DNA of 64,000 nucleotides from an uncultured delta proteobacterium. GTDB lineage: Bacteria > Desulfobacterota > Binatia > Binatales > Binataceae. Below the pieces are notes generated by a model. It was not told where the DNA came from. It worked only from the letters and a program-made list of their open reading frames with translations, and did not search any database. A program made the translations under genes and the position numbers. Shown in pieces: positions 7,558-22,164 of the stretch. Position 1 is the stretch's first letter; every line of letters starts with the position of its first letter. The stretch lies in the NCBI GenBank assembly GCA_963724765.1, contig CAVRVY010000004.1:1088001-1152000 (forward strand), read 5' to 3'.

Positions 7558-9228
7558 ATGGACGAGGAGGTACGCTTCCGTCTGCTCTACGATCTCGGCT
7601 GCGCATTCGCCGCGCGAATCGAGATCGATCAACTGATCCCCTTGGTGGTGACCAAGTGCCGCGAAGCGCTGGACGCCGAGGGCGCTTCGGTCCTGCTGCT
7701 GGACGACGATCGCAAAGAGCTCTACTTCCCCTATAACTCCGAGGAAGACCCCGAGATCGCAGAGCGCCTCGTGCGTCTGCGCTTTTCGGCCGAGCTCGGA
7801 ATCGCCGCCGCCGCCTTGAAGAGCGGCAAGGCGCTGGTGGTCAACGACGCGCAGAACGATCCCCGCCTTTACCACGGGATCGACAAAATGACCGGACTGG
7901 TCACCCGCAACGTGCTTGCCGCGCCGCTGTCGACACGCCAGGGAACTATCGGCGTGGTCGAGGTGGTGAACGGGCGCGGCGCGGAGGGATTCACCGAGGG
8001 TGACCTGTCGTTCCTCGAGGCCATCTCGGGCAGCATCGCGATCGCGATCGAGAATGCGCGGCTCTATACCCAGGTGCGCGAGTCCGAGGCCAGCCTGCAA
8101 ACCCAGGTCGGGGCGTTGCGCCGCGACCTGGCCCGTCACGACGCCTTTACTGAAATCGTCGGCACCGGGCCGGCGATGGCGGAGGTGCTGCGGCTGATGG
8201 AGACCGCTGCCGCGTCGTCGATAACGGTGCTCATCCATGGCGAGACCGGCACCGGCAAGGAACTGGTCGCACGCGGACTGCATCGCGCCAGCGCGCGCAG
8301 CGACCATCCGTTTCTCGCGCTCAATTGCGCCGCGATGCCCGAGCCGCTGCTCGAGAGCGAACTCTTCGGCCATCGGCGCGGCGCGTTTACCGGCGCGATC
8401 CGCGACAACCCCGGACTGTTCCGTGCGGCCGCGGGCGGGGTGGTCTTTCTCGACGAGGTCGCCGACATGCCGTTGCCGATGCAGGCCAAGCTGCTGCGCG
8501 TGCTCGAGGAACAGGAAGTCGTGCCCTTGGGTGACAGCTTTCCGCGCAAGGTCGACGTGCGCGTATTGTCGGCGACCAACCGCGATCTCAGAGCGGAGGT
8601 GGCGGCCGGCAGGTTCCGCGAGGATTTGTACTATCGGCTCGCGGTTTTTCCGATTGCGTTGCCGCCGCTGCGGGACCGGCGCGAGGACATCCCGCTGTTG
8701 GCCACGCGCTTTCTCGCCATCGCAACCGAGCAGCAGCGCAAGCCCATCGCCGGTCTCGAACCGGCCGCTCTCGAGCTGCTGACGAAATACGGATGGCCCG
8801 GCAACGTACGTGAACTGCGCAACGAAATCGAGCGCGCGGTGGCGCTGGCGCGATCGAGCGCGAGCGTGGCGCCCGAGCATCTCTCCGCGCCCGTGCGCGC
8901 CCAGGGCGAACTCAACCATGGCGCGCCGACCAATCATGCGGAGCCCGGCCGCGCCAGTCGAGTCACCGCGGCAGCGGCGGCCGTCCAGGCGGCGGCCGCC
9001 CGGGCACCGGCTCGAAGCCAAGAGGCCAAGGGCCAGGAAGCCGAGGGCCAGGAACCTACGGGCGAGGACGCCAAGAGTCCGCTGCGCCGGGCGCGCGCGG
9101 CGTTCGAGACGAATTTCATCGCCAAGGTGCTCGACGAGCATCGAGGCAACGTGTCGCGCGCGGCCATCGCTCTGGGGCTCTCGCGCGCCTCGCTGCAGAA
9201 GAAAATGAAGGAGTACGGCTTGCGCTAA
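7558..9228 (+). CDS. GAF-domain sigma54-dependent enhancer-binding activator (Fis-type HTH)
   Basis: N-terminal GAF, Walker [28 protein letters not shown] and C-terminal [20 protein letters not shown]. Confidence 0.94.
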
Positions 9229-9348: not shown

Positions 9349-9364
9349 TGGCATTCGTTTTGCT
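9349..9364 (+). promoter_or_regulatory. Candidate sigma54 -24/-12 promoter
   Basis: TGGCATTCGTTTTGCT (GG-N10-GC), ~130 bp upstream of the receiver gene. Confidence 0.65.
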
Positions 9365-9494
9365 GTTGGGATGGGAGGGACGTCGGTGACTGTGACAATC
9401 GAGGGGGGCTGGTTGGGCGGGGTGGCGACCGTTAAATTCCGACGTTCGGCGAGGCGCAAACTCCGTGCATAACGAAAAGGATCAGGGGGACCCC

Positions 9495-9989
9495 ATGGGC
9501 GTCGGCTCTTCAAATAGTGGCGGTGGGCGGGAGATTCGGGAACTGGAACGCGGCCAGTGGGTGGTCGAACTATGTCGTACCAAACAACCTCGACTGCGAG
9601 TGCTGGTGGTCGAGGATGAACCCGATGCGCAAACCTTGCTGAGATTCATCCTCGAGCCCAGGTACGAAGTCATCACCGCTTCCTCGGGCGAAGAAATGCG
9701 CCGTCAGCTCGAGGCTTATCCCGAGCGCCTGAGCCTGGTCCTGATGGACCTTAAGCTGGAGGGCGACGAAGATGGAGTGACGCTCACCCGGCATCTGCGC
9801 GGCGAAGACCGCTGGAAAGGCATCCCGATCGTCGCGCTTACCGCCTGCTCGACCGGCGATGACTTGCGCCGTGCGATCGAGGCCGGATGCGACGACTACG
9901 TGCCCAAGCCGTTCTACCGCAAGCAGCTCACGGCGCTGGTTGAACGCCTAATCGATAATTCTCAGCGCTGCGAGGATTCCGGCTCGTAG
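9495..9989 (+). CDS. Stand-alone response regulator receiver (CheY/DivK-like)
   Basis: VLVVEDE, LVLMDLKL, IPIVALTA and CDDYVPKPF motifs. Start is uncertain (9465 or 9495). Confidence 0.88.
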   Translation: MGVGSSNSGGGREIRELERGQWVVELCRTKQPRLRVLVVEDEPDAQTLLRFILEPRYEVITASSGEEMRRQLEAYPERLSLVLMDLKLEGDEDGVTLTRHLRGEDRWKGIPIVALTACSTGDDLRRAIEAGCDDYVPKPFYRKQLTALVERLIDNSQRCEDSGS

Positions 9990-10217
9990 CAGACCTACAG
10001 GAACCTAACCGCCGACTCCCCTTCCCGCTGCAGCAAGGGGAGTGAAGAGGTTCTGGTTCCGTTCTCGTTTTTCTGCCGGGCATTTGTAGGGGCCGTTCCG
10101 TGAACGGCCCCCCTTTTCATGCCGGGCGGACTTGATGGTGTTCTTCGTCTGATTGACTTGGACTCGACTCCCGCATTCGTGAGGGATGTCGACAAACACA
10201 AAAAATCGCTCTGCGTC

Positions 10218-10318
10218 GATTCTTCACTTCGGAAGCCTTCGTTCAGGACGACATCACAAAGGCTCCCTCTGTGTCATCCTGAGCGTCAGCCAAGGATCCT
10301 CCGCGAAGCGATGGATCT
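10218..10318. repeat. REP-like inverted intergenic repeat pair
   Basis: CGTTCAGGACGACA (10240-10253) is inverted to TGTCATCCTGAGCG (10272-10285), 12/14 with both mismatches G-U compatible. Resembles GTCATCCTGAGCG...GGATCT-type extragenic palindromes. Confidence 0.5.
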
Positions 10319-10502
10319 TTTTTCCCGCATTTATCCAATCCGTACATAACGCCTGAACGTGACACTTGTACGTAACGCAGAAGTGAATTCCCGACCCCAA
10401 CATTTCGCGGGCGGGTGATTTCTGTTGGCGTTTGGACGGCCCGCCAATCCGGCGGACTTGAACGCGAGCGAGGGCTGTTCTAAAAGAGATCGACGCGGCG
10501 AT

Positions 10503-10817
10503 ATGAGACAGCTTTTTTCAAAGTCGGAACGGCGAGCCCTCAGTTCGGTTCTGGCCGTCCTCATCGTGTTGGCCAGCCTTCCATTGACCGCTGGCGTCGT
10601 CATCGCTTTCGGATCGAGCCAACCGGAATTCACCGTCAACATTTGCCAGCCAATCCAAGCGTTAGATCACGTGTCGAACACCATGGTTGCTCGCCCGGCT
10701 GCGGTCCTACGCGAGTTCGTGCCCTGTGATCTGGGTTCGGTCACGGCAGAGCCAACCGTTCGAATGATCGAGTGTCCAGCAACACCCGATACCCCACCCC
10801 CCAGGCAATCCGTCTAA
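10503..10817 (+). CDS. Small exported/TM protein with Cys residues and a Pro-rich C-terminus (DUF2946/CutF-like leader appearance)
   Basis: TM segment VLAVLIVLASLPLTAGVVI, 3 Cys, ends PATPDTPPPRQSV. First ORF of the Cys-rich operon. Confidence 0.6.
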   Translation: MRQLFSKSERRALSSVLAVLIVLASLPLTAGVVIAFGSSQPEFTVNICQPIQALDHVSNTMVARPAAVLREFVPCDLGSVTAEPTVRMIECPATPDTPPPRQSV

Positions 10818-10926
10818 CAGCGTTCCTGCAAGCAACAGGCTTCTTGATTTGATTCGTGACGCCGCAGGCGTCGGGAGTCGAGCTTTCGTCAAGGCGGTCA
10901 CCTCAATGAGCCGCCGGAGAATATGT

Positions 10927-11940
10927 ATGAAATGGATTGGAGCGACTGCGCTCTCGTCGCTAACGGATACGCGTGTGCCCAATTTTTGGCGCAGGGCCGG
11001 ACGTCTGCTGATCGCGGCCGTCCTGCTCATTAGCCTGGCGCCGAGGCTCGCCTGGGCCTGCGCTTGCGGATGCGGTGTTTTCGACGTTGGCACCCCCTCG
11101 CTCTTTCCTGCTGGTGCGGGAGGCACGGTGTGGCTCGAGTACGATTTCATGAATCAGTACATTAACTGGCACGCGACCGGGCCATCCTCTGGCATCAACA
11201 ATAGCGATAAACAAATCAAAACAGATTTTCTAACCGCGGGCGGTCAATACATGTTCAATCGGAGTTTCGGGTTAATGGTGACCGTCCCCTATACGATCAG
11301 GACGTTCAGGACGCAGGGCACCGGCGACGAGATCGACCAGTACAACCATGCCAATTTTGGCGACGTGCGCATTTGGGGCATGTACACGGGACTACAAGAG
11401 GACATGTCGCTCGGATTGTTAGCCGGATTCAAGCTACCAACCGGTGACCACACCTATAACGACTTTGATCGCGACACCTCGATTGGAACGGGAAGCACAG
11501 ACCTTCTGCTCGGCGCCTTTAAGCAGGGAACCTTCCCCAGCCGGATCGGGAACGCCAAGCTGACTTTTCTAGATCGCCCTTTTTATTATTTTGCACAGGT
11601 CCAGTACGAATATCCATTTGCGAGTACAGGAAACTACACCCCGGGCAAGGAATTCGACGGCGCGGTGGGCACCTACTACAACTTCGGCCAGGTCGGGCCG
11701 CTCAAAGAACTCGCTCCGATGCTTACGGTTCTCGCGTCGGTCCGTGGGCATGATATGGGCTCGGAAGCGGACCCTCCAGACAGCGGTTACGATCGTGTGC
11801 TGCTCGCCCCTGGGGGCGAAATCAGACTCGGAGTTCTCAGATTCTATGCCGATGTCGAATTTCCGATTTTCCAATTCGTGAACGGATACCAGTTGACCAC
11901 TCCATATCTGATCAAAACGATTTTCAGCTACGATTTCTGA
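10927..11940 (+). CDS. Outer-membrane beta-barrel transporter (MetA-pathway/SphA-like porin appearance) with N-terminal CACGC motif
   Basis: Signal peptide ending AWA|CACGC, alternating beta strands, GFKLPTG and GTGSTD motifs, C-terminal Phe (FSYDF). Start is uncertain. Confidence 0.75.
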   Translation: MKWIGATALSSLTDTRVPNFWRRAGRLLIAAVLLISLAPRLAWACACGCGVFDVGTPSLFPAGAGGTVWLEYDFMNQYINWHATGPSSGINNSDKQIKTDFLTAGGQYMFNRSFGLMVTVPYTIRTFRTQGTGDEIDQYNHANFGDVRIWGMYTGLQEDMSLGLLAGFKLPTGDHTYNDFDRDTSIGTGSTDLLLGAFKQGTFPSRIGNAKLTFLDRPFYYFAQVQYEYPFASTGNYTPGKEFDGAVGTYYNFGQVGPLKELAPMLTVLASVRGHDMGSEADPPDSGYDRVLLAPGGEIRLGVLRFYADVEFPIFQFVNGYQLTTPYLIKTIFSYDF

Positions 11941-11949
11941 GGATATGGC

Positions 11950-12513
11950 TTGAAAATGCGCCCAACCTTCTCAGTGCTCGCATTTTTGGTGATGATCCTG
12001 GCGATCGTGCCTGCCTTTAGCGCGCTCGCCGCCGGCGAGGTTGGCCAGGCAGCACCGGCACTCGTGGTTCAGGAGCTAAGTGGTCAGAATTTCGACCTCG
12101 CAGCACTGCGCGGCAAGGTCGTAATCGTCAACTTCTGGGCCACGTGGTGTCCGCCCTGCCGTGAGGAAATGCCTACCCTGGATGCATTCTACCGGCGTTA
12201 TCACGGTGAGGGGCTGGAGATGATCGGTCTGAGCGCCGACCGCCCGCATGATCGATCCGACGTAATAAAGATGATGCAATCGTTCAGCTATCCGGCGGCG
12301 ATGTTGGACGACGCCAAAGTCAACGGGTTCGGCGGCCCCAACGCGTTGCCCGTGACATTTATTATCGATGGCAAGGGAATGGTTCGCGCCAGGCTTACGC
12401 CCGATGAAACGCGAGTGACGGAGAAAACCCTCGATAGCGTGGTACTTCCGTTGCTCCATCAGAAAGCCGCGGCACAAACTTCATCGGTTAAGAATTCGAC
12501 CGGGAACCCTTAG
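11950..12513 (+). CDS. TlpA/ResA-family thiol-disulfide oxidoreductase, exported
   Basis: VNFWATWCPPCREEMP and LPVTFIID motifs plus a signal peptide. Confidence 0.92.
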   Translation: MKMRPTFSVLAFLVMILAIVPAFSALAAGEVGQAAPALVVQELSGQNFDLAALRGKVVIVNFWATWCPPCREEMPTLDAFYRRYHGEGLEMIGLSADRPHDRSDVIKMMQSFSYPAAMLDDAKVNGFGGPNALPVTFIIDGKGMVRARLTPDETRVTEKTLDSVVLPLLHQKAAAQTSSVKNSTGNP

Positions 12514-12578
12514 TGCCGAGCACAAATGTTAGCGACCCGATGTGTGCCAGACGGGTGTATGATTTTTAAGTGATTCCA

Positions 12579-12968
12579 ATGAAGACGCTGATCCTCGCTG
12601 CTGCTGTACTGCTGACCGGATGCGCCACGACGAAGACCCCGCCATCCGACGTGGACGCGCGGGTCATGCTGCAGCAAAGGAAGAGTCACGAAATCGCCGT
12701 GCGCGAGCAGCAATGCATCGACGAAACAGAAACTCGTAGCAATGATCAGGTCGCGCGGATCGCGGCGGCTTCCGACCCCGATGAAGAAATGCTGATGCAG
12801 AAAGCGAACGATGAGCGAGATCGCGAACTTTACCAATGCAGGACGGCCGCAGATCGTGAAAATGATGAACTCACTTCCAGCGAACGTGCGCAATATCAGG
12901 ATGACGTGCAGGACGAACGCGATCGCAGCGCGCTGATGATGATTCTTACGACTTCGAGTCCGCGCTGA
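12579..12968 (+). CDS. Helical lipoprotein of unknown function
   Basis: Lipobox LLTG|C, charged coiled-coil body with two further Cys. Confidence 0.7.
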   Translation: MKTLILAAAVLLTGCATTKTPPSDVDARVMLQQRKSHEIAVREQQCIDETETRSNDQVARIAAASDPDEEMLMQKANDERDRELYQCRTAADRENDELTSSERAQYQDDVQDERDRSALMMILTTSSPR

Positions 12969-12988
12969 AGTCTATAAGGAGAAGTGCG

Positions 12989-13666
12989 ATGCATTCTCTG
13001 CGAACCGCAGCGCCGATCAGCATCAGCCTCTTCCTAACGATGCTGATTGTTCTCGCCGCCGCGGTGACTCTGATGGGTTGTCGTCCGCAGGCTCAGGATA
13101 TTGGGGAGCGTGGAGGATTCGCGATGCGCGATGCCTCTGACTGCTTGCCCGATATCACCTTAGTCGATCAGCATGGCCGCAACGTTTCTCTGGCCTCCTT
13201 GAAGGGGAAACCGGTGCTGTTCGATTTCATCTACACCTCCTGTCCCGGACCGTGCCTTCTGCTCACAGCACGAATGAAAAAGGTCGCAGACCGACTGGGA
13301 TCCAAACTTGGAACGGACGCTCGTATCGTGTCGATAACCGTTGACCCCGAACATGATCAGCCCAAGCAGCTTCTCGCATATGCAAGTGCCCAGGGCGCCA
13401 ATGTTAATGGCTGGCTGTTTTTGACGGGAACGCCCAAGCAGATCGAAGATGAGATGGCACGATTCAAGTTGATTCGCCAGCGTGAAGCCGATGGAACGGT
13501 CGATCATGTTCTCGAATTCTTCCTGGTTGATGCGAACGGTCGCGCGTTGCTGCAGTACATGGGCGAAAAAGCCGAACCGGATCAGGTGGCGAACGACGTA
13601 GAGCGGGCGGCGGCAGGTGAGTCGGTAACGGCTGGAGATGGCGCAAACGTAGCGGTTGCCCTTTAG
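12989..13666 (+). CDS. SCO1/SenC/PrrC copper chaperone, probable lipoprotein
   Basis: FIYTSCPGPC (CxxxC), SITVDPEHD and VDH His ligand. RBS AAGGAG. Confidence 0.92.
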   Translation: MHSLRTAAPISISLFLTMLIVLAAAVTLMGCRPQAQDIGERGGFAMRDASDCLPDITLVDQHGRNVSLASLKGKPVLFDFIYTSCPGPCLLLTARMKKVADRLGSKLGTDARIVSITVDPEHDQPKQLLAYASAQGANVNGWLFLTGTPKQIEDEMARFKLIRQREADGTVDHVLEFFLVDANGRALLQYMGEKAEPDQVANDVERAAAGESVTAGDGANVAVAL

Positions 13667-13677
13667 GAGGTGAGCGC

Positions 13678-14280
13678 ATGAAGTCGTCACGGGCATCCAT
13701 AGCATCGTTGATGGCTCTAGCGTGTGTCTCTGCCGCAGCGATTCTTGTCGCTCGAACGCACGCCCGCGGCCTGACCAGCTCTGCGCTGACAATCAGGGCG
13801 GTCGCGCATCAGTGGTGGTGGGAATTCGACTATCCGTCGCTCGGTATCAAGACCAGCGATGTTTTGTACGTTCCCAGCGCTACAAACGTTCGCCTGGAGC
13901 TTGCCTCCGCCGACGTGATCCACAGCTTCTGGATTGCCGGGATGAAGGAATCCGTAGACATTCTTCCAGGCAAGACGCACCCGCTTGATCTAGTCGTCAA
14001 CTCACCGGGCGAGCTCTATGGAAATTGCGACTCCGGTTGTGGCTGTGGAACTGTCTGCATGCGATTTCGCGTGCTGGCGAGCAGTCCCGGGAAATTCGAG
14101 CGATGGGTGGCGCGCGAGCGTTTGCTTCGCGCGGAGTTCAAGCCGCCGCCCAAGGTTGACGCACCAGCTTGCGCCTTGAATACCGGCTACCAGCGCCGCT
14201 TGGGCCACAATTTGCACGAGAGTCATTTGCAACGGTTGCTTAATGGAGACGAATCAACTGGCAAAAGCCCCTCGCACTGA
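13678..14280 (+). CDS. Orphan cytochrome c oxidase subunit II-like cupredoxin domain with atypical Cys-rich metal loop
   Basis: AHQWWWEFDYP and SADVIHSFWI motifs. GNCDSGCGCGTVCM replaces CxExCGxxHxxM. RBS AGGAGG. Confidence 0.85.
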   Translation: MKSSRASIASLMALACVSAAAILVARTHARGLTSSALTIRAVAHQWWWEFDYPSLGIKTSDVLYVPSATNVRLELASADVIHSFWIAGMKESVDILPGKTHPLDLVVNSPGELYGNCDSGCGCGTVCMRFRVLASSPGKFERWVARERLLRAEFKPPPKVDAPACALNTGYQRRLGHNLHESHLQRLLNGDESTGKSPSH

Positions 14281-14289
14281 TTTGCTCAA

Positions 14290-14862
14290 ATGACTTCGGC
14301 AGTGTCGGGGCGCCTGCCTCAAGCGAGGAGTTTCGGATCGCAGGTTCTGCGCGATCTCGGCGGCGTTGCAGTGCTCGCGCTCGTGGCCCTGGGGGTCGGA
14401 CTCGTGATGAACCGGGTCTCGTCGCAGCCGCTCCCGATCGTCTATCAGACGCCCGAACAGCGGTTCGACGCCGAGCTTACGACTCTGGTTGCGGCGCCGC
14501 CGTTTAAAATCGCGCCGGCGGCAACTGTCGGGCTCGAGGAATTCAGTTCGGCCGTCAAAAGCAAGAGCGCGCTCATCCTCGACGCGCGCCCGTCTGTCTT
14601 CTTCGAACAGGGACATGTGCCTGGCGCGCTCAATCTCTCTCGCGACCGCTTCGCGCATGATTATCGGCATCTTGCGTCCGTACTGAAGCCCGCCGTTGAT
14701 AAGCCGATCATCGTGTACTGCTCCGGCGGCGACTGCCATGATAGCCGGCTGGTCGCGAACGCCATGCTGAGCCTCGGCTTCAGCAACGTCAGCGTGTTTA
14801 CAGGCGGATGGGAGGCATGGTCGGCGGCTGGGCTGCCAATATCCAAAGGCACTCTGCGATGA
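14290..14862 (+). CDS. Membrane-anchored rhodanese-like protein
   Basis: N-terminal TM, ILDARP, GHVPGALNL, IIVYCSGGDCHDS and GGWEAW. Confidence 0.9.
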   Translation: MTSAVSGRLPQARSFGSQVLRDLGGVAVLALVALGVGLVMNRVSSQPLPIVYQTPEQRFDAELTTLVAAPPFKIAPAATVGLEEFSSAVKSKSALILDARPSVFFEQGHVPGALNLSRDRFAHDYRHLASVLKPAVDKPIIVYCSGGDCHDSRLVANAMLSLGFSNVSVFTGGWEAWSAAGLPISKGTLR

Positions 14863-15311
14863 TGGTTCCCCAGGATGCGCGCCGGGACTACATCGTGCTC
14901 GGAGCCAGCCTCGCCCTAGGCGCCATATTTGTTTATGCGGGCATCGACAAGATACACGACCCGCTGCAGTTCGCTGACAGCATCGCTGCGTTCGGTATCC
15001 TGCCGGCGGCGTTCATTAGTTTGCTCGCGTTGAGTCTGCCGCCATTCGAGATCGCATGCGGCCTCCTGTTGCTCTGGCCTCCAACCAGACGGGTCGGGGC
15101 GCTCGCGATAGCGCTCATCTCTGTAGTCTTTTTCTCGGCGCTGCTGTCTGCGCTGGTGCGAGGTTTAACGCTAGACTGCGGCTGCTTCGGGATCGGTCCG
15201 CCGTCGCGTCCGAGGATGTGGCTGGAGCTCGCGCTGAACGTGGTGTTTCTCTTGGGCGCGCTGTCCGTTTATCTGCGCTCGATAGTGCGAGTGCAGGTGC
15301 GCGCGCCGTGA
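14859..15311 (+). CDS. MauE/DoxX-family membrane protein
   Basis: GAIFVYAGIDKI, EIACGLLLL and RGLTLDCGCFG motifs. ATGA overlap with the rhodanese gene. Confidence 0.88.
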   Translation: MMVPQDARRDYIVLGASLALGAIFVYAGIDKIHDPLQFADSIAAFGILPAAFISLLALSLPPFEIACGLLLLWPPTRRVGALAIALISVVFFSALLSALVRGLTLDCGCFGIGPPSRPRMWLELALNVVFLLGALSVYLRSIVRVQVRAP

Positions 15312-15422
15312 GCACGCCTGCAATCAAGGTATGACCAATACGGCCCCTCGGGAAGCTTCGCTACGGGCAGGCATTGCATCGGTTCAACGAGCGTCGGCCG
15401 TCCGCCATCTTATGGCGCCCCG

Positions 15423-17879
15423 CTAGTGGTTCAACGCAGGTAGCGGAATTGTCAGAGTGTCGTAGACCGTAATTCTCGGACCGTAGGCCGCCTGGAAGAT
15501 CCCGATCCCTTCGGCAGGCCTGATCAGGTTAGTCCGGTCGAGAATGTTGAGCAGCGTGATCCGGTCCGTAATTTCGCCGATGTGCGGCAACTGAAAGCTT
15601 CTTTGTCCGCTCAGGTCGATCTGAACGACGTTCGGCAGAGATTCCAAATCGGCGAAGCCCCCGCGCAATCCACTGCTATAGAGAGCATCAACGCTGAACA
15701 CATATGGTTTCCAGCGATAGGTAGCGCCGCCCGAGGCGCCGTAGAGCGGCTGATGATCGAGCACGATATAGTGTCGGTTGATGTACCCGAGCTCGTCGGG
15801 GTCGAAGTTAAACTCCCCGGTCGCCACTCCTTTCTGCATGTTCCTGCCGATCGTAGTACTGCCATGGATTGAGAGATTGTCGGCTTTATAAGTGACCGTG
15901 GTCTCCGTCCCCCAGATGTAGCCATGCCTATAGTTGAAGGGCGCGAAAATCGGCACATCTCCGAACTGGCCCGTATCGAGGTAATGGCCCGTGTATTCAT
16001 AAAACCCATCTTCCGAGATCGCGATGTGCTTCGTCAGTTGATGTACTATACCGGCATCTAACTCATAGTCGTCCTCGGTTTCGGGCGTGACGATTCCAGT
16101 GCCTGCCAAGCCGGTGGTTCCAGCAAACGCCGCGGGGGCGCCGGGCGAGATGCCTTGAAAGCTCGGCACCTGCATGTACCGAGCAAACCCGGCGTGGAGC
16201 GTGGTGTCGAGCCGTGGGACAAAGACCAGATTGACTGTCGGATCGATTTGATTGTTGTAAGTAAAGCCGCTCAAACGATCCCAGCGTACGCCAAAATTTG
16301 CTCGTAGCTTCTCGGTGATTTGCCAGGTGTCTTCCAGATAGATCCCGGACAATAGATTGATCTTGTTGGTATTGTTTATTACCCGAACGGGAAAGAAAGG
16401 AGGTCCAGTCTGATCGCCGGCCGCATCGACGTTGAACACCAGTGAGCTGTCGTCCGCCTCGACCGCGTATTCACCAAGATAGAAGCCCGCACCGAGCGTA
16501 CGTGCGCCAAGCTTGTAAGTCAGATCACCTTGAAGCGTGTTGTCGAAATCGCTGTGGAACGCGGTTGACGCCACTCCCTGATAGATGAGTTCGCCAATCC
16601 GATCGGGTTCGAATTTCTGCGAGATATAGTGGGTCGAATACGAGAGCTGGTAAGCAAGCCCGGGCTCAGGCGCTCCATTCAGTGCAAGAATGCCCAGATA
16701 GTCACGAAAGTTCAGAAATGAGTTGATATCGGCTGACGGAAAATTGCTCACGCCGGTTAGTTCGAACTCTGGTGCGAGGTTCGCTCGATTGGGTAACTGG
16801 TTGTTGCTCGCGGCGACCGAGGTAATGAGACTCAGCCGAGTGGTCGGAGTCAAGTTGTAGGCAAAGAAGCCGAATCCCTGACCCTGATTGGTATGGTCGT
16901 GAATCGCATCCGGCGCCGGGGTAGCGGAGCTGAACGCGGTGTTGCTCTGGCTATAGAGCCCGCTGATGTAATAGCTGAAGTTACCGTCGCAGCCGCCGTA
17001 CTGAAAGCTAGGCTGAACGGTATTCCGTTGCCCGCCGTACATGCTGACGCTACCGCCCGGTTGTTCGCACCCGTCCTTTGTTTGAATGTTCACCACACCG
17101 CCGGTGGCATAGCTGTAGCGCGACGGCAGAATCCCATCGAGCAGGCTCAGTTGCTTGATGAACATTGGATTGATCATGGAGAGAAAGGGCGGATTGGTAT
17201 TGATGTCGAGGGGGACCATGACTCCATTGATCTGGTACTGGAATTGAGGCCCTTCCGTGTTGCGTATGTGGATCTGCTGATTCTGGTCGATCGCGACGCC
17301 GGGCATCTGCGCCAGTACATCCGTGATCGTGGTGTTATCGCCGCGCGGTAAGTTGGAAATATCCTGTGCCGTTACGGTGTATCTGTTGGCGCCGGTGGTG
17401 GAGACGCCGTTTGGTGCGCGAATCTGGCTGGTCTGAACGGGAAGCGTCAGCGCCGTCTGTGCGCCAAGGGTAATCGAGATCGTCTTTCCGGCACTCTGTG
17501 GAAAGACAATAATCTTGTTTGCCGGCCTGAAGCCCGACTTTAGAGCTACCAGCGAGAAAACGCCCGGATTTGGTGGTGCGATTTTAAACCGTCCGTCTGC
17601 GCCGGTGGTGGCACGAGCGACGGCGTGGCCATGTTCGTCCTGCAATTCGAGGTTCACCTGAGCCAGAGGCCGGCCCAGCGCATCGGTGATCGTCCCGGAC
17701 ACTTGTTGCGCGGCGGCCAGACAGGGAGGTACAAGGCCAAGGACCAGCAGGCCCGCTAGTACCAAATGCCACATTCGCCAGGGCGTTTGCTCTGCCTTTC
17801 GGCTCGTTAGGAACCTCGACCGGGGTAATCGTACGGTCGCTGCTTCGTATTCGTGGACGCTTCGCTTTGAGACGTTCAT
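15423..17879 (-). CDS. TonB-dependent receptor with N-terminal carboxypeptidase-regulatory-like domain
   Basis: VSGTITDALGRPL, plug motifs (DVLAQMPGV, YQINGV, GGVVNIQTK) and barrel YLEDTWQITEKLRANFGVRWD. True start is likely 17879 or 17774, since the track start at 18020 runs through the Fur box. Confidence 0.9.
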   Translation of the reverse strand: MNVSKRSVHEYEAATVRLPRSRFLTSRKAEQTPWRMWHLVLAGLLVLGLVPPCLAAAQQVSGTITDALGRPLAQVNLELQDEHGHAVARATTGADGRFKIAPPNPGVFSLVALKSGFRPANKIIVFPQSAGKTISITLGAQTALTLPVQTSQIRAPNGVSTTGANRYTVTAQDISNLPRGDNTTITDVLAQMPGVAIDQNQQIHIRNTEGPQFQYQINGVMVPLDINTNPPFLSMINPMFIKQLSLLDGILPSRYSYATGGVVNIQTKDGCEQPGGSVSMYGGQRNTVQPSFQYGGCDGNFSYYISGLYSQSNTAFSSATPAPDAIHDHTNQGQGFGFFAYNLTPTTRLSLITSVAASNNQLPNRANLAPEFELTGVSNFPSADINSFLNFRDYLGILALNGAPEPGLAYQLSYSTHYISQKFEPDRIGELIYQGVASTAFHSDFDNTLQGDLTYKLGARTLGAGFYLGEYAVEADDSSLVFNVDAAGDQTGPPFFPVRVINNTNKINLLSGIYLEDTWQITEKLRANFGVRWDRLSGFTYNNQIDPTVNLVFVPRLDTTLHAGFARYMQVPSFQGISPGAPAAFAGTTGLAGTGIVTPETEDDYELDAGIVHQLTKHIAISEDGFYEYTGHYLDTGQFGDVPIFAPFNYRHGYIWGTETTVTYKADNLSIHGSTTIGRNMQKGVATGEFNFDPDELGYINRHYIVLDHQPLYGASGGATYRWKPYVFSVDALYSSGLRGGFADLESLPNVVQIDLSGQRSFQLPHIGEITDRITLLNILDRTNLIRPAEGIGIFQAAYGPRITVYDTLTIPLPALNH

Positions 17880-17991
17880 AACGCGTACTGACAATCCTCG
17901 GGGTGGCGCACCAGCCTCGCCTGCCGCGGACTTGGCGAGTGTCTCGGTACAGTTGTTGGGTTGGCTGACACGACGCTTAAGCCATGAAGCA

Positions 17992-18014
17992 ATATTGAGA
18001 ATGATTCTCAATAT
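17992..18014. promoter_or_regulatory. Fur-type operator (perfect 11-1-11 palindrome)
   Basis: ATATTGAGAAT-G-ATTCTCAATAT contains TGAGAATnATTCTCA and lies directly upstream of the TBDR. Confidence 0.8.
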
Positions 18015-18154
18015 CTGCATAAGCCTGATTTGTCAAATCTTCGGTACGTCGATGTGGCGAAGGCGCTGAACGTTACGCGCTGCGAGTTGCCCCGCCGGAC
18101 AAGAGCCACCAATCCAGCAGGACGAACGCGATCGCAGCGCGTTTATGACGATTC

Positions 18155-19459: not shown

Positions 19460-21827
19460 TCAATGCGGCCATTTCCAGTTGCGAATCTCGGGCTGGTCGA
19501 TGCCGTTGGCCAGGGCGTAGTCGAGGTTCTCGCAAATCTGGTCCTTCAGCCAGTCTTTGACGTGAGCGCCAGTGACCCGCAGCCGGGCGACGCGATCGAT
19601 CGCGTCGATGGCAAGGTTGAAGCGGTCGGTCTGGTTTTCGATTGCGAGTTGGAGCGGAGTGTTGATGCTCCCGAACTCCTTGTAGCCGCGCACGTGCAGA
19701 TTGACGTGATTCGCTCTGCGGTAGGCGAGCTTGTGAATCAGCGACGCGTATCCGTGAAAATTGAAGATGACCGGCTTGTCGATCGTGAACAGGCTGTCGA
19801 AGTCGCGGTCGGTAAGACCGTGCGGATGTTCGCTGCTCGGTTAAAGCTTGAACAGGTCCACGACATTGACGAAGCGGATTTTCAGGTCGGCGATTTTCTC
19901 CCGCAATATCGCCACCGCCGCGAGCGCCTCGATCGTCGCCACGTCGCCCGCGCTTGCGATCACCACGTCGGGCTCGGCGCCCTGGTCGTTGCTGGCCCAT
20001 GACCATAGTCCGATACCTTTGCTGCAATGTTTGATCGCGGAATCCATATCGAGAAACTGCGGATGCGCCTGCTTGTCGGCGACGATGATGTTGATGTAGT
20101 CGGTGCTGCGCAGGCAGTGATCCGCGACGCTCAAAAGGCAGTTGGCGTCGGGCGGCAGATAGATCCGCGTCACCCGAGGGCTCTTGTTGGTGACCACGTC
20201 GATGAATCCCGGGTCCTGATGCGTGAAGCCGTTATGATCCTGACGCCACACGGTGGAACTGATCAGGATATTGAGCGAGGAAACCGGCGCCCGCCATAAA
20301 ACTTCGTTTTTCGCCTTCTCCAGCCATTTGGCGTGCTGGTTCACCATCGAGTCGACGATGTGGGCGAAGGCCTCGTAGGTATTGAAGAGGACGTGGCGGC
20401 CGGTCAGCACGTAGCCTTCCATCCAGCCCTCCAGCGTGTGCTCGCTCAGCATCTCCATGACCCGGCCGTCGGGAGAGAGTTCGCCGCCGTCGGCGTCCTC
20501 GGGTTTCCTTTCGGCGAGCCAGGTTTTGCGAGAGGCCTCGTAGATCGCCTGCAACCGGTTAGACGCGGTCTCGTCGGGGCCGAAGACGCGAAAATTGTCC
20601 ATGTTGTCGCGCATCACGTCGCGCAAAAACTGGCCAAGCACGTAAGTGTTTTCGGCCGCTGATTGTCCGGGCCGCGCGACTTCGAGCCGGTAATCGCGAA
20701 AATCCGGCAAGCGCAACGGGCGGCGCAGCAAGCCGCCGTTGGCGTGCGGATTGGCACTGATGCGGCGGCTTCCGGCCGGCGCGAGGGCGCGCAGTTCGGG
20801 AATCAGCCGGCCCTTCGCGTCGAAAAGATCGTGTGGCCGGTAGCTCAGCATCCATTCCTCGAGCAGTTTAAGATGCGCGGGATTTGCAACGACGTCGGGT
20901 TATCGGCACCTGATGCGCCCGCCAGGAGCCCTCGAGCTTATGGCCGTCGAACTCTTTGGGCGCGGTCCAGCCCTTCGGGGTGCGCAGTATTATCATCGGC
21001 CAACGCGGCCGGCGCGGCACCCCGGTGCGTCGCGTCTCTTCCTGGATCGCGCGAATTTCAGCGAGACAGCGTTCCAGCGTGGACGCCATCTGTTGATGCA
21101 TCGTCGGCGGATCGTCGCCCTCGACCACGTAAGGCTTGTAGCCGTAGCCGACAAAAAGATTCTCGAGCTCGTCGGCCGGGATGCGGGCGAGGATTGTAGG
21201 GTTCGCGATCTTGTAGCCGTTGAGGTGCAGAATCGGCAGCACGGCGCCGTCGCGGATCGGATTGAGGAATTTGTTCGAGTGCCACGAGGTCGCCAGCGGG
21301 CCGGTCTCCGCCTCGCCGTCGCCCACCACCGCGGCCACGATCAGATTGGGATTGTCGAACGCGGCGCCGAAAGCGTGAGACAGGCTATAGCCGAGTTCCC
21401 CGCCCTCATGAATCGACCCCGGCGTCTCCGGGGTGCAATGACTGCCGATTCCTCCGGGAAACGAGAAGAGCCTGAAGAACGTTTTCAATCCCTCCTCGTC
21501 CTGGCTGCGATCGGGATAGACCTCCGTATAGGTTCCTTCGAGATAGCTGTTGGCGAGCATCGCAGGCGCGCCATGGCCGGGGCCTGAGATATAGAGCACG
21601 TTGAGGTCATACTCGCGGATGAGCCGGTTGAGGTGCACCCAGATGAAACTCTGGCCGGGGTCTGAGCCCCAATGACCGAGCAGGCGATGCTTGACGTGGT
21701 CGGGCCGCAGAGGCTCCTTCAGCAGCGGATTGTCGCGCAGGTAGAGCATCCCCACGGCCAGGTAGTTGCAGGCCCGCCAATACGCGTCGATCAGTTCTAT
21801 TTGCCTGGTCGAGAGACTAACGGACAT
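19460..21827 (-). pseudogene. xfp: Phosphoketolase (XFP), one frameshift plus one in-frame stop
   Basis: [39 protein letters not shown] and FNFHGY motifs. An extra G at 20897-20899 shifts the frame, and TAA at 19841-19843 falls in LFKL*PSSEHPHG where Gln is expected. Confidence 0.88.
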
Positions 21828-22164
21828 GAACGATGCTCCGGCGCATTCTGGCGGTCGCGAATGCGGGATTTCTGTATATTCAGCTTCGCCCAATCGTGCA
21901 GGGCGGGCAATACAGCACGGCGCCAACGCTCCGTAGGCGCCGGCAGGAAGAACAAAAAAGACCAGAATAAATAAAGCCTTGCGAAATCTGTCAGTGAGAA
22001 CTACGCAATTTGACCATTTGCAGATATAAATGCATTTGTATGACGCTGACAGTACGCGGCCATGACAGAGCGGTGAAAAAAGTGTCGTGTCGGGGCCTGC
22101 GGTGGAGGCTTGCCGAATCCCCTCCGACGCGTAAGCCGGGGTCTAACGACATGGTTCCGCATCC

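Follow-up and report, generated by a model that had tools for sequence, protein, structure and literature searches.

A modular gene cluster of the Binataceae with a predicted role in envelope copper trafficking and thiol reduction and an optional orphan cupredoxin related to cytochrome oxidase subunit II

We analyzed a cluster of eight genes, g1 to g8, at positions 10503-15311 of a 64,000-nt stretch of contig CAVRVY010000004.1 (assembly GCA_963724765.1; the whole stretch is hereafter called the window), which originates from an uncultured member of the family Binataceae. With confidence slightly better than even, we read the cluster as an envelope system of the Binataceae for copper trafficking and thiol reduction, to which an orphan cupredoxin loaded by an SCO protein would be an optional addition; we infer the metal, the direction of its flow, and the cupredoxin site, its nuclearity included, from the genes and their surroundings. 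The cluster is specific to the Binataceae and modular, and its eight genes do not constitute one fixed system. All eight open reading frames (ORFs) named in the original prediction made for this stretch were found, in one orientation on the + strand (read from the ORF list), and all eight products carry hydrophobic N-terminal segments or lipoboxes (read from the translations), in agreement with the claim that each is exported or membrane-bound. Pfam assigns five of the products (g3, g5, g6, g7, and g8), and g1, g2, and g4 are family-less. As a whole, the earlier interpretation is partly supported.

The protein encoded by g6 (13678..14280, +) is a membrane-anchored cupredoxin which, by homology, derives from cytochrome oxidase subunit II (COX2). 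It matches the COX2 cupredoxin domain PF00116 with 51.2 bits (cut-off, 22; E 1.4e-13) and scores 105.2 bits against the NCBIfam equivalog TIGR02866, under the cut-off of 147.7. Its best solved relative is subunit II of the Thermus caa3 oxidase (2yev_B; E 2.1e-30 with a family profile), in which the segment FCAELCGASHARM is aligned to nCdsgCGcgtvCm of g6. Among 810 candidates scored, 570 proteins are related to g6 at E ≤ 0.001; the 120 relatives listed share 54-100% identity, and their names, if any, are oxidase subunit II or hypothetical. The AlphaFold2 (AF2) model of g6 (pLDDT 73.6) consists of one N-terminal helix (residues 4-33) followed by a cupredoxin domain, for which Foldseek returned the periplasmic CoxB domains 4w9z and 4txv_D (TM 0.74-0.75). 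The hallmark of COX2, namely two N-terminal transmembrane helices together with an adjacent COX1 gene, is missing from g6.

The consensus ligand motif of the CuA site of COX2 is H...C-x-E-x-C-x3-H-x2-M. The corresponding region of g6 reads H82-x34-C117-D-S-G-C121-G-C123-G-T-V-C127-M128, with a further Cys, C165, in the C-terminal tail, and lacks the full CuA set. The first His (in H-x34-C spacing, confirmed in six distant g6 copies), both Cys ligands, and the Met are kept, the Glu position is occupied by Ser or Ala, the position of the second His (His2) is Thr or variable, and two extra invariant Cys flank the lost His2 position, at +6 and +10. The replacement of His2 and Glu, together with the two additional Cys, points to a thiolate-rich copper center in g6. 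Residues H82, C117, C121, G122, C123, C127, M128, and C165 are invariant in 18/18 aligned g6 proteins, as is the W46-W47-W48-E-F-D-Y block. Strict retention of the H-Q-W-W-W-E-F-D-Y patch, which we take to be the electron-entry region of COX2, suggests a continuing function of g6 in redox chemistry or in handing off Cu(I).

To place g6 among its relatives, 80 loci were fetched, with one genome per species; 49 are canonical, reading C-x-E-x-C-G-x-x-H-x-x-M, and 31 are atypical (L006-L035 and L038). The full atypical motif is present at 30 of the 31 atypical loci. The exception, L022 (9001-9600, from a Candidatus Binatus soli record), reads C-D-S-G-C-A-C-A-T-G-S-M and combines the replacement of C127 by Ser with those of G122 by Ala and of the tail C165 by Trp; the joint loss of C127 and C165 hints that the two may act as a pair. 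In a FastTree phylogeny with SH-like support (79 COX2-type rows, two of the 80 loci having been removed by coverage or stop filters), the atypical proteins and L022 form one clade with support of 100. Screening 401 genomes from the whole phylum for a DNA pattern of the motif gave 2 positive genomes, both from the family of the window, and none among the 396 outside it; the family member without the pattern, G029, is the genome of the L022 variant.

In the genome (5.4 Mb in 4 contigs, 97% complete), COX1 is matched at five places, none of them in the window and the nearest more than 200 kb from it. The four canonical COX2 genes of the genome are each located about 2 kb or less from one of these matches; the remaining one, a weaker match (178 bits) in a 783-aa open frame, has no COX2 match beside it and is, we infer, a quinol NO-reductase-like protein. 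Judged by this gene context, g6 is an orphan without a COX1 partner. COX1/COX3, nosZ, and the methylamine dehydrogenase (MADH) heavy chain are likewise absent from the 28 window ORFs of ≥250 aa scanned outside the cluster, as the original prediction had stated; the small MADH subunit (<250 aa) was not specifically searched.

Directly 5' of g6 lies g5 (12989..13666, +), an SCO1/SenC lipoprotein (lipobox L-M-G-C) with a C-P-G-P-C motif and a distal His. It scores 96 bits against PF02630 (cut-off, 22.8; E 2.3e-27), and C85, C89, and H173 are conserved in 27/27 proteins. An SCO gene occupies the position directly 5' of g6 in 29 of the 30 assessable loci and the position directly 3' in L034, and is hence adjacent in 30/30. 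The product of g3 (11950..12513, +) is a periplasmic TlpA/ResA-like thioredoxin with matches to AhpC-TSA (E 2.6e-22), Redoxin (E 1.7e-19), and Thioredoxin_8, and the Cys pair of its W-C-P-P-C motif (C67 and C70) is kept in 43/43 orthologs. The NCBIfam models of ResA and TlpA both score under their cut-offs, and because the TlpA equivalog reaches 74.6 against a required 230, g3 is described as TlpA-like and not as an equivalog. Periplasmic thioredoxins reduce Cys residues in SCO as well as in the CuA site, and copper loading involves SCO.

The last two genes encode a further pair of thiol proteins. The product of g7 (14290..14862, +) is a rhodanese-domain protein with an N-terminal membrane anchor (PF00581, 70.6 bits against a cut-off of 22.2; E 1.7e-19). 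Its loop, C144-S-G-G-D-C149-H150, is conserved at C144, C149, and H150 in 27/27 proteins; of these, C149 is unusual as a second Cys in the loop, and the NCBIfam models for rhodanese/DsbD-fusion and rhodanese (seleno)proteins are matched weakly. The product of g8 (14808..15311, +; the start may be 14859) is a polytopic membrane protein of the MauE/DoxX type (PF07291, 101.9 bits against 27; E 4.3e-29), with a D-C124-G-C126 motif, the two Cys of which are conserved in 26/26. In relatives, g8 is always paired with g7. Elsewhere in the genome, a second MauE-like gene (G000:C2:433949-434966) has a thioredoxin-like gene at a distance of about 350 bp, and these genes on contig C2 may represent a conventional MauE/MauD pair.

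At the other end of the cluster, g2 (10927..11940, +) is predicted to encode an outer-membrane beta-barrel. No Pfam family matches it at E 0.01, that of COG4313/FapF included, and the AF2 model (pLDDT 69.6, with the Cys segment at low confidence) has 12 strands. Foldseek ranks FapF (5o67) and the COG4313 channel 4rl8 highest, with E from 2e-8 to 3e-7, a TM of about 0.7 on the target, and 12-16% identity, which places g2 in the 12-strand fold. The signal peptide ends in ...AWA and the mature N-terminus then begins C-A-C-G-C-G; the sequence ...W-A-C-A-C-G-C-[GS] follows a signal-peptide-like stretch in 23/23 g2 orthologs. At least 2768 relatives make up the family, and the 120 listed are all unnamed or "hypothetical," none with a precomputed Pfam domain. 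The product of g1 (10503..10817, +), a 104-aa exported or membrane-anchored protein, matches nothing in Pfam or NCBIfam. It had been called a Cys-rich leader, a description that the alignment of 21 orthologs does not bear out: the small, conserved exported protein has a single invariant Cys, C48 in N-I-C-Q-P-I-Q, and the tail P-D-T-P-P-P-K. A search of 1.84 billion representatives returned 154 relatives of g1, nearly all about 100 aa long; of 31 compared with Pfam at E 0.01, 30 were blank and one had a weak match far under the cut-off. The product of g4 (12570..12968, +) is a small, strongly charged lipoprotein (lipobox L-T-G-C), blank in Pfam and with two weak sub-threshold matches in NCBIfam. 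Its orthologs share just 27-50% identity and nevertheless retain C18 (31/31), C49 (30/31), and C90 (31/31). Genes of the g1, g2, g4, and g6 types are single-copy in the genome.

The distribution of these genes across the family reveals the modular structure of the cluster. All neighborhood counts refer to the flanks examined, at the 31 atypical loci and at 18 g2 loci from 16 genomes without an atypical g6 (base loci). At the atypical loci, g2 is present in 25/31. The corresponding counts at atypical and base loci, respectively, are 25/31 and 17/18 for g3, 22/31 and 14/18 for g1, 17/31 and 13/18 for g4, 30/31 and 12/18 for one or more SCO genes of any kind, and 13/31 and 13/18 for the g7-g8 pair. 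Genes absent from the cluster of the window also recur, including those for FtrD-like proteins (14/31 and 13/18), PCYCGC proteins (8/31 and 10/18), CopC/CopD (3/31; CopC 4/18 and CopD 3/18 at base loci), YHS proteins (4/31 and 1/18), and, upstream of the atypical loci, ZIP transporters (7/31). COX1 lies near the cupredoxin at two of the 31 loci, L021 and L038, the latter with COX1 fragments. Among 121 sampled genomes of the family, g2 occurs in 66 and the atypical g6 in 22, with both present in 21 of the 22 g6 genomes. In the tally of 22, the six least similar copies were checked for the motif and the rest are at least 55% identical to g6, a level at which all of the 80 loci concerned were atypical; the family tallies take in the unpublished genomes G044 and G087 (g2) and G072 (PmoB).

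The same-genus locus L088 carries g1-g2-g3-g4-g7-g8 with nothing between g4 and g7, and neither SCO nor a cupredoxin, so that g5-g6 behaves as an inserted cassette and the barrel and thiol-redox genes do not serve solely to build the cupredoxin. The original prediction had staked its reading on conserved synteny, conserved Cys motifs, and the independence of homologous clusters from complete conventional oxidase operons. Core gene order is conserved across Binataceae species, each of the motifs it listed (CACGC, WCPPC, CPGPC with a His, CDSGCGCGTVC, CSGGDC, and DCGC) is conserved in relatives, and COX1 adjoins two of the 31 loci, so the reading is not refuted on any of these points. The proposal of one copper system fared unevenly: CopC/CopD, YHS, SCO paralogs, and PCYCGC in relatives speak for copper, whereas unity is contradicted by the 45 of 66 barrel genomes (about two thirds) that have the barrel/TlpA/lipoprotein/rhodanese/MauE module but no cupredoxin.

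The lipid A gene block houses the whole cluster in several genera, between lpxI/GFO and lpxB; in the genome of the window, this slot holds an SCO paralog only (L086), and the cluster is located elsewhere. One relative, G095, has three copies of the base module (L095, L096, and L097), one of them in the lipid A block with CopC/CopD; the copies comprise FtrD-like genes (all three), g1 (two of three), g2, SCO, PCYCGC, TlpA, g4, rhodanese, and MauE. A conserved Pfam-less protein of about 300 aa always precedes CopC-CopD (L013:10723-11649, L016:10727-11641, L024:9947-10855, and relatives).

In the explanation we favor, g1, g2, g3, g4, g7, and g8 would form a base module, into which the g5-g6 cassette would have been inserted in this genome. 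At the outer membrane, g2, a channel with a C-A-C-G-C triad at its mature N-terminus, would bind or pass Cu(I), with import as the proposed direction, together with g1 as a small exported partner that bears a single invariant Cys and g4 as a lipoprotein with two conserved Cys. The TlpA-like protein g3 would be the reductase of the base module, and g7 (C-x4-C) and g8 (C-x-C) would carry reducing power across the inner membrane, the electrons probably running from g8 through g7 to g3, and would keep the Cys ligands of Cu(I) reduced. This role is proposed for g7 and g8 because of the C-x4-C-H loop, the weak rhodanese/DsbD-fusion likeness, and the C-x-C motif of g8. The SCO protein g5 would reduce and metallate g6, with g3 and g5 acting on g6 as TlpA and SCO act on CoxB, and g6, on its one-helix anchor, would work without COX1 and carry a thiolate-rich site. 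Copper is the assigned metal because of SCO, the COX2 ancestry of g6, and the CopCD, YHS, and SCO genes of relatives.

Several observations weigh against this explanation. CopC/CopD is absent from the window cluster and was not found anywhere in the genome, and PCYCGC and FtrD-like genes are also absent from the cluster, being located elsewhere in the genome; given this composition, the copper link leans on SCO, COX2 ancestry, and relatives. SCO proteins can be thiol-disulfide reductases and not copper donors. The four clustered Cys of g6 could form disulfides in place of a metal site, and the joint loss of C127 and C165 in L022 could equally well be that of a disulfide pair. The patchy spread of the genes (g6 in 22/121 genomes and g2 in 66/121) fits an accessory or stress role as well as it fits supply. 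Finally, no particular copper client emerges, because a link to PmoB is lacking and PCuAC is missing family-wide. In the 121 genomes, g2 is present in 31/52 PmoB-positive and 35/69 PmoB-negative ones, a comparison in which related genomes are not independent, and 9 of the 22 g6 genomes carry PmoB, which amounts to no association. PCuAC (PF04314) has 0 matches in the genome and is found in 1/121 family genomes, which does not support PCuAC-dependent CuA assembly.

Two candidate roles were rejected on these counts. A replacement of PCuAC by g6 was discarded, PCuAC being missing family-wide (1/121) with or without g6, and so was service of the cluster to a copper monooxygenase, neither g2 nor g6 being associated with PmoB. 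Outside the window, the genome encodes a PmoB/AmoB homolog (G000:C3:1551089-1554916; E 9e-83) with an SCO paralog about 2.3 kb downstream, which may be a second, monooxygenase-linked copper chaperone.

A bolder version of the copper explanation, which we regard as possible and put forward tentatively, is that g6 houses an undescribed thiolate-rich copper center, possibly with more than two Cu or sulfide-bridged, that is loaded by SCO. The site would have evolved from CuA by swapping His2 for the flanking Cys, g1 and g2 would form a new class of small outer-membrane copper channel based on an N-terminal Cys triad, and the MauE-rhodanese pair would feed it with reducing power as a stand-in for DsbD/CcdA.

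Among the rival explanations, the one that survives best, although we hold it to be rather unlikely, is that the cluster protects against copper stress and does not supply copper. The thioredoxin, MauE, and rhodanese would repair copper-damaged periplasmic thiols, as in the Salmonella Scs system, and the barrel N-terminus, SCO copies, PCYCGC, and cupredoxin would sequester or export Cu(I). CopC/CopD, ZIP, and SCO are, however, more often uptake or delivery genes. The barrel could equally serve as an exit, the distribution is patchy and accessory, with modules in multiple copies (three in G095), and Msr, Fe/Mn SOD, and Usp genes stand beside the cluster or its SCO paralog at single loci, yet no copper efflux pump, efflux ATPase, RND pump, or multicopper oxidase occurs in about 150 neighboring ORFs at 13 relatives' loci, and in several genera the cluster resides inside the housekeeping lipid A block. 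In the parts consulted, a preprint on Scs describes Dsb-like enzymes encoded in a Cu-induced operon, among them the membrane-bound TlpA-like ScsD (10.64898/2026.05.22.727170), and a review names YcnJ-like copper import (PMC7558416).

It is more doubtful still that the cluster is not centered on copper and handles another thiophilic metal (Zn, Cd, Hg, or Ag) or sulfane sulfur; in the sulfur form of this idea, rhodanese persulfide would build a sulfide-bridged or polysulfide center in g6, the Cu-S center of the original prediction included. The catalytic Cys of the rhodanese is indeed conserved, the four close Cys of g6 exceed what CuA requires, the ZIP genes upstream of 7/31 loci could fit such a role, and FtrD-like proteins are annotated, by Pfam name, as iron-sulfur membrane proteins. 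Against this, the rhodanese-MauE pair is present in 13/18 clusters without g6 and absent from 18/31 clusters with it, and hence does not serve g6 specifically; dithiol redox chemistry accounts better than sulfur transfer for the C-x4-C-H loop and for the weak rhodanese/DsbD-fusion matches; and SCO, COX2 ancestry, CopCD, and YHS all indicate copper. That g6 is an alternative subunit II, assembling in trans with a COX1 of the genome, is highly improbable despite its clear COX2 homology, its retained W-rich patch, and the two COX1-adjoining loci, as it has one N-terminal helix instead of two, lacks His2 and Glu, and falls under the TIGR02866 cut-off, as the four canonical COX1 genes each have their own nearby COX2, and as 29/31 loci are without COX1.

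By their layout, g1-g8 look like one unit, a reading drawn from the upstream hairpin, a promoter-like element, the close gaps, and a convergent receptor gene. A strong terminator-like hairpin (10089-10111) closes the response-regulator gene 5' of the cluster. The promoter-like element, TTGAAC-17 nt-TAAAAG (10458..10486, +; read from the sequence), ends 16 nt 5' of the g1 ATG, and its block CTTGAACGCGAGCGAGGGCTGTTCTAgAA plus the ATGAGAC start is kept in 9/9 aligned upstream regions; the element was not among the matches of a consensus promoter scan. From g1 to g7, successive genes are separated by 109, 9, 56, 20, 11, and 9 nt. The overlap of g7 with g8 is 55 nt long, or 4 nt with the alternative g8 start at 14859. 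Consequently, the spacing of "9-20 bp or overlapping" given earlier applies to five of the seven junctions and not to the 109- and 56-nt gaps. Beyond g8, at a distance of 111 nt, a TonB-dependent receptor with a CarboxypepD_reg N-domain (15423-18020, -) is convergent with the cluster; related receptors (38-87% identity) are near the cluster at 6/49 relatives' loci.

A GAF-domain sigma-54 activator gene (7558-9228, +) lies 5' of the lone response-regulator gene (9465-9989), with a sigma-54-like site, TGGCATTCGTTTTGC (9349-9363, 1 mismatch), between the two. The activator/response-regulator pair is kept 5' of the cluster in L006, L007, and L010 only, and the hairpin parts it from g1. With up to 2 mismatches, the sigma-54 pattern had 67 matches against 70 expected and none in 10112-10502, and thus gives no evidence that the upstream activator drives the cluster. 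A scan of 9900-15700 against Rfam at E 0.1 returned no match. The GC content of the cluster is 57.9% (g1-g6, 55-58%) and that of the receptor gene is 55.9%, versus a genome mean of 62.1%; an integrase-type gene is located at 805-1689 of the window. Relocation or horizontal acquisition of the stretch 10503-18020 is possible by these measures. Farther downstream, a phosphoketolase (XFP) gene is split (19841-21926, -), with XFP_N in ORF 20868-21926 and XFP plus the start of XFP_C in ORF 19841-20851, where XFP_C is cut at 77/202 positions; its sequence identifies this as a probable frameshift or assembly error.

CuA belongs to the small number of well-defined copper centers in biology, and its building is a model problem in metalloprotein assembly. 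g6 would be a strongly conserved natural offshoot of CuA in which the assembly factors were kept, the oxidase partner was lost, and half of the ligands were rewritten, and it offers a test case for copper-site evolution. Four unnamed families, those of g1, the g2 barrel (with thousands of metagenomic relatives), g4, and PCYCGC, are placed in a testable copper/thiol context, and the cluster suggests that reductant could reach the periplasm by way of a MauE-rhodanese pair. Soils harbor abundant Binataceae, many of which possess copper monooxygenases together with several haem-copper oxidases, so that the way these bacteria are supplied with copper is relevant to carbon cycling.

Known members of the FapF/COG4313 families move amyloid subunits or hydrophobic compounds. 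The g2 barrel shares the 12-strand fold and a similar size with them (5o65/5o67, 4rl8) but is Pfam-less and 12-16% identical, and C-A-C-G-C is unmentioned in the consulted text on those families. The clusters of relatives resemble CopC/CopD (YcnJ-type), sco-linked operons in having CopC and CopD beside SCO paralogs, whereas the genome studied here lacks CopC and Binataceae clusters add PCYCGC, FtrD-like, g1, g2, and g4 genes. MauE and MauD act in methylamine dehydrogenase maturation, and the cluster likewise combines a MauE-family membrane protein with a periplasmic thioredoxin-like gene, but without MADH genes among the window ORFs scanned. DoxX-SseA-SodA is a membrane oxidoreductase complex of Mycobacterium tuberculosis. 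The cluster shares with it a DoxX-superfamily membrane protein, a rhodanese, and a putative part in thiol homeostasis, and the L021 cluster includes an Fe/Mn SOD; it differs in that MauE is not DoxX proper, that the rhodanese is periplasmic, anchored, and of C-x4-C type, and that any complex would be hypothetical here.

In the literature, we found no description of this cluster, of a Cys-rich COX2-like protein, or of a MauE-rhodanese pairing, and the consulted portions of the main text of the Binatota genomics paper (PMC8262859) contain no mention of cupredoxin, MauE, rhodanese, or "cytochrome c oxidase." Outer-membrane copper routes listed in the consulted part of a review include porins, the TonB-dependent NosA/OprC, and chalkophore receptors, and OprC is described there as binding Cu(I) via Cys, Met, and His (PMC7558416), which provides a precedent for outer-membrane proteins with a copper site built on Cys. 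Unlike NosA/OprC, g2 is not a TonB-dependent receptor: the barrel is small, lacks both a plug domain and a TonB box region, and has a putative role in copper passage. ScoI and TlpA are named as CoxB maturation factors of Bradyrhizobium in the part consulted of PMC6669012, and the entry title of PDB 4txv is that of a TlpA-CoxB mixed disulfide, so that a trio of the TlpA/SCO/CoxB type is a known maturation unit. The cluster likewise brings together a thioredoxin, an SCO protein (CxxxC...H), and a COX2-fold cupredoxin (His1, Cys1, Cys2, and Met), but g6, in contrast to CoxB, is an orphan with one helix, without His2 and Glu, and with two extra invariant Cys and a tail Cys; the known ScoI pathway also has a second chaperone, PCuAC (PcuC), not found in this genome. 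With the ScsABCD system of Salmonella, as presented in the parts consulted of its report (10.64898/2026.05.22.727170), the cluster shares the combination of a TlpA-like reductase and a membrane electron conduit in a copper-linked operon, whereas it has MauE and a rhodanese instead of the DsbD-like ScsB and the DsbA/G-like ScsC, and adds a barrel, an SCO protein, and a cupredoxin.

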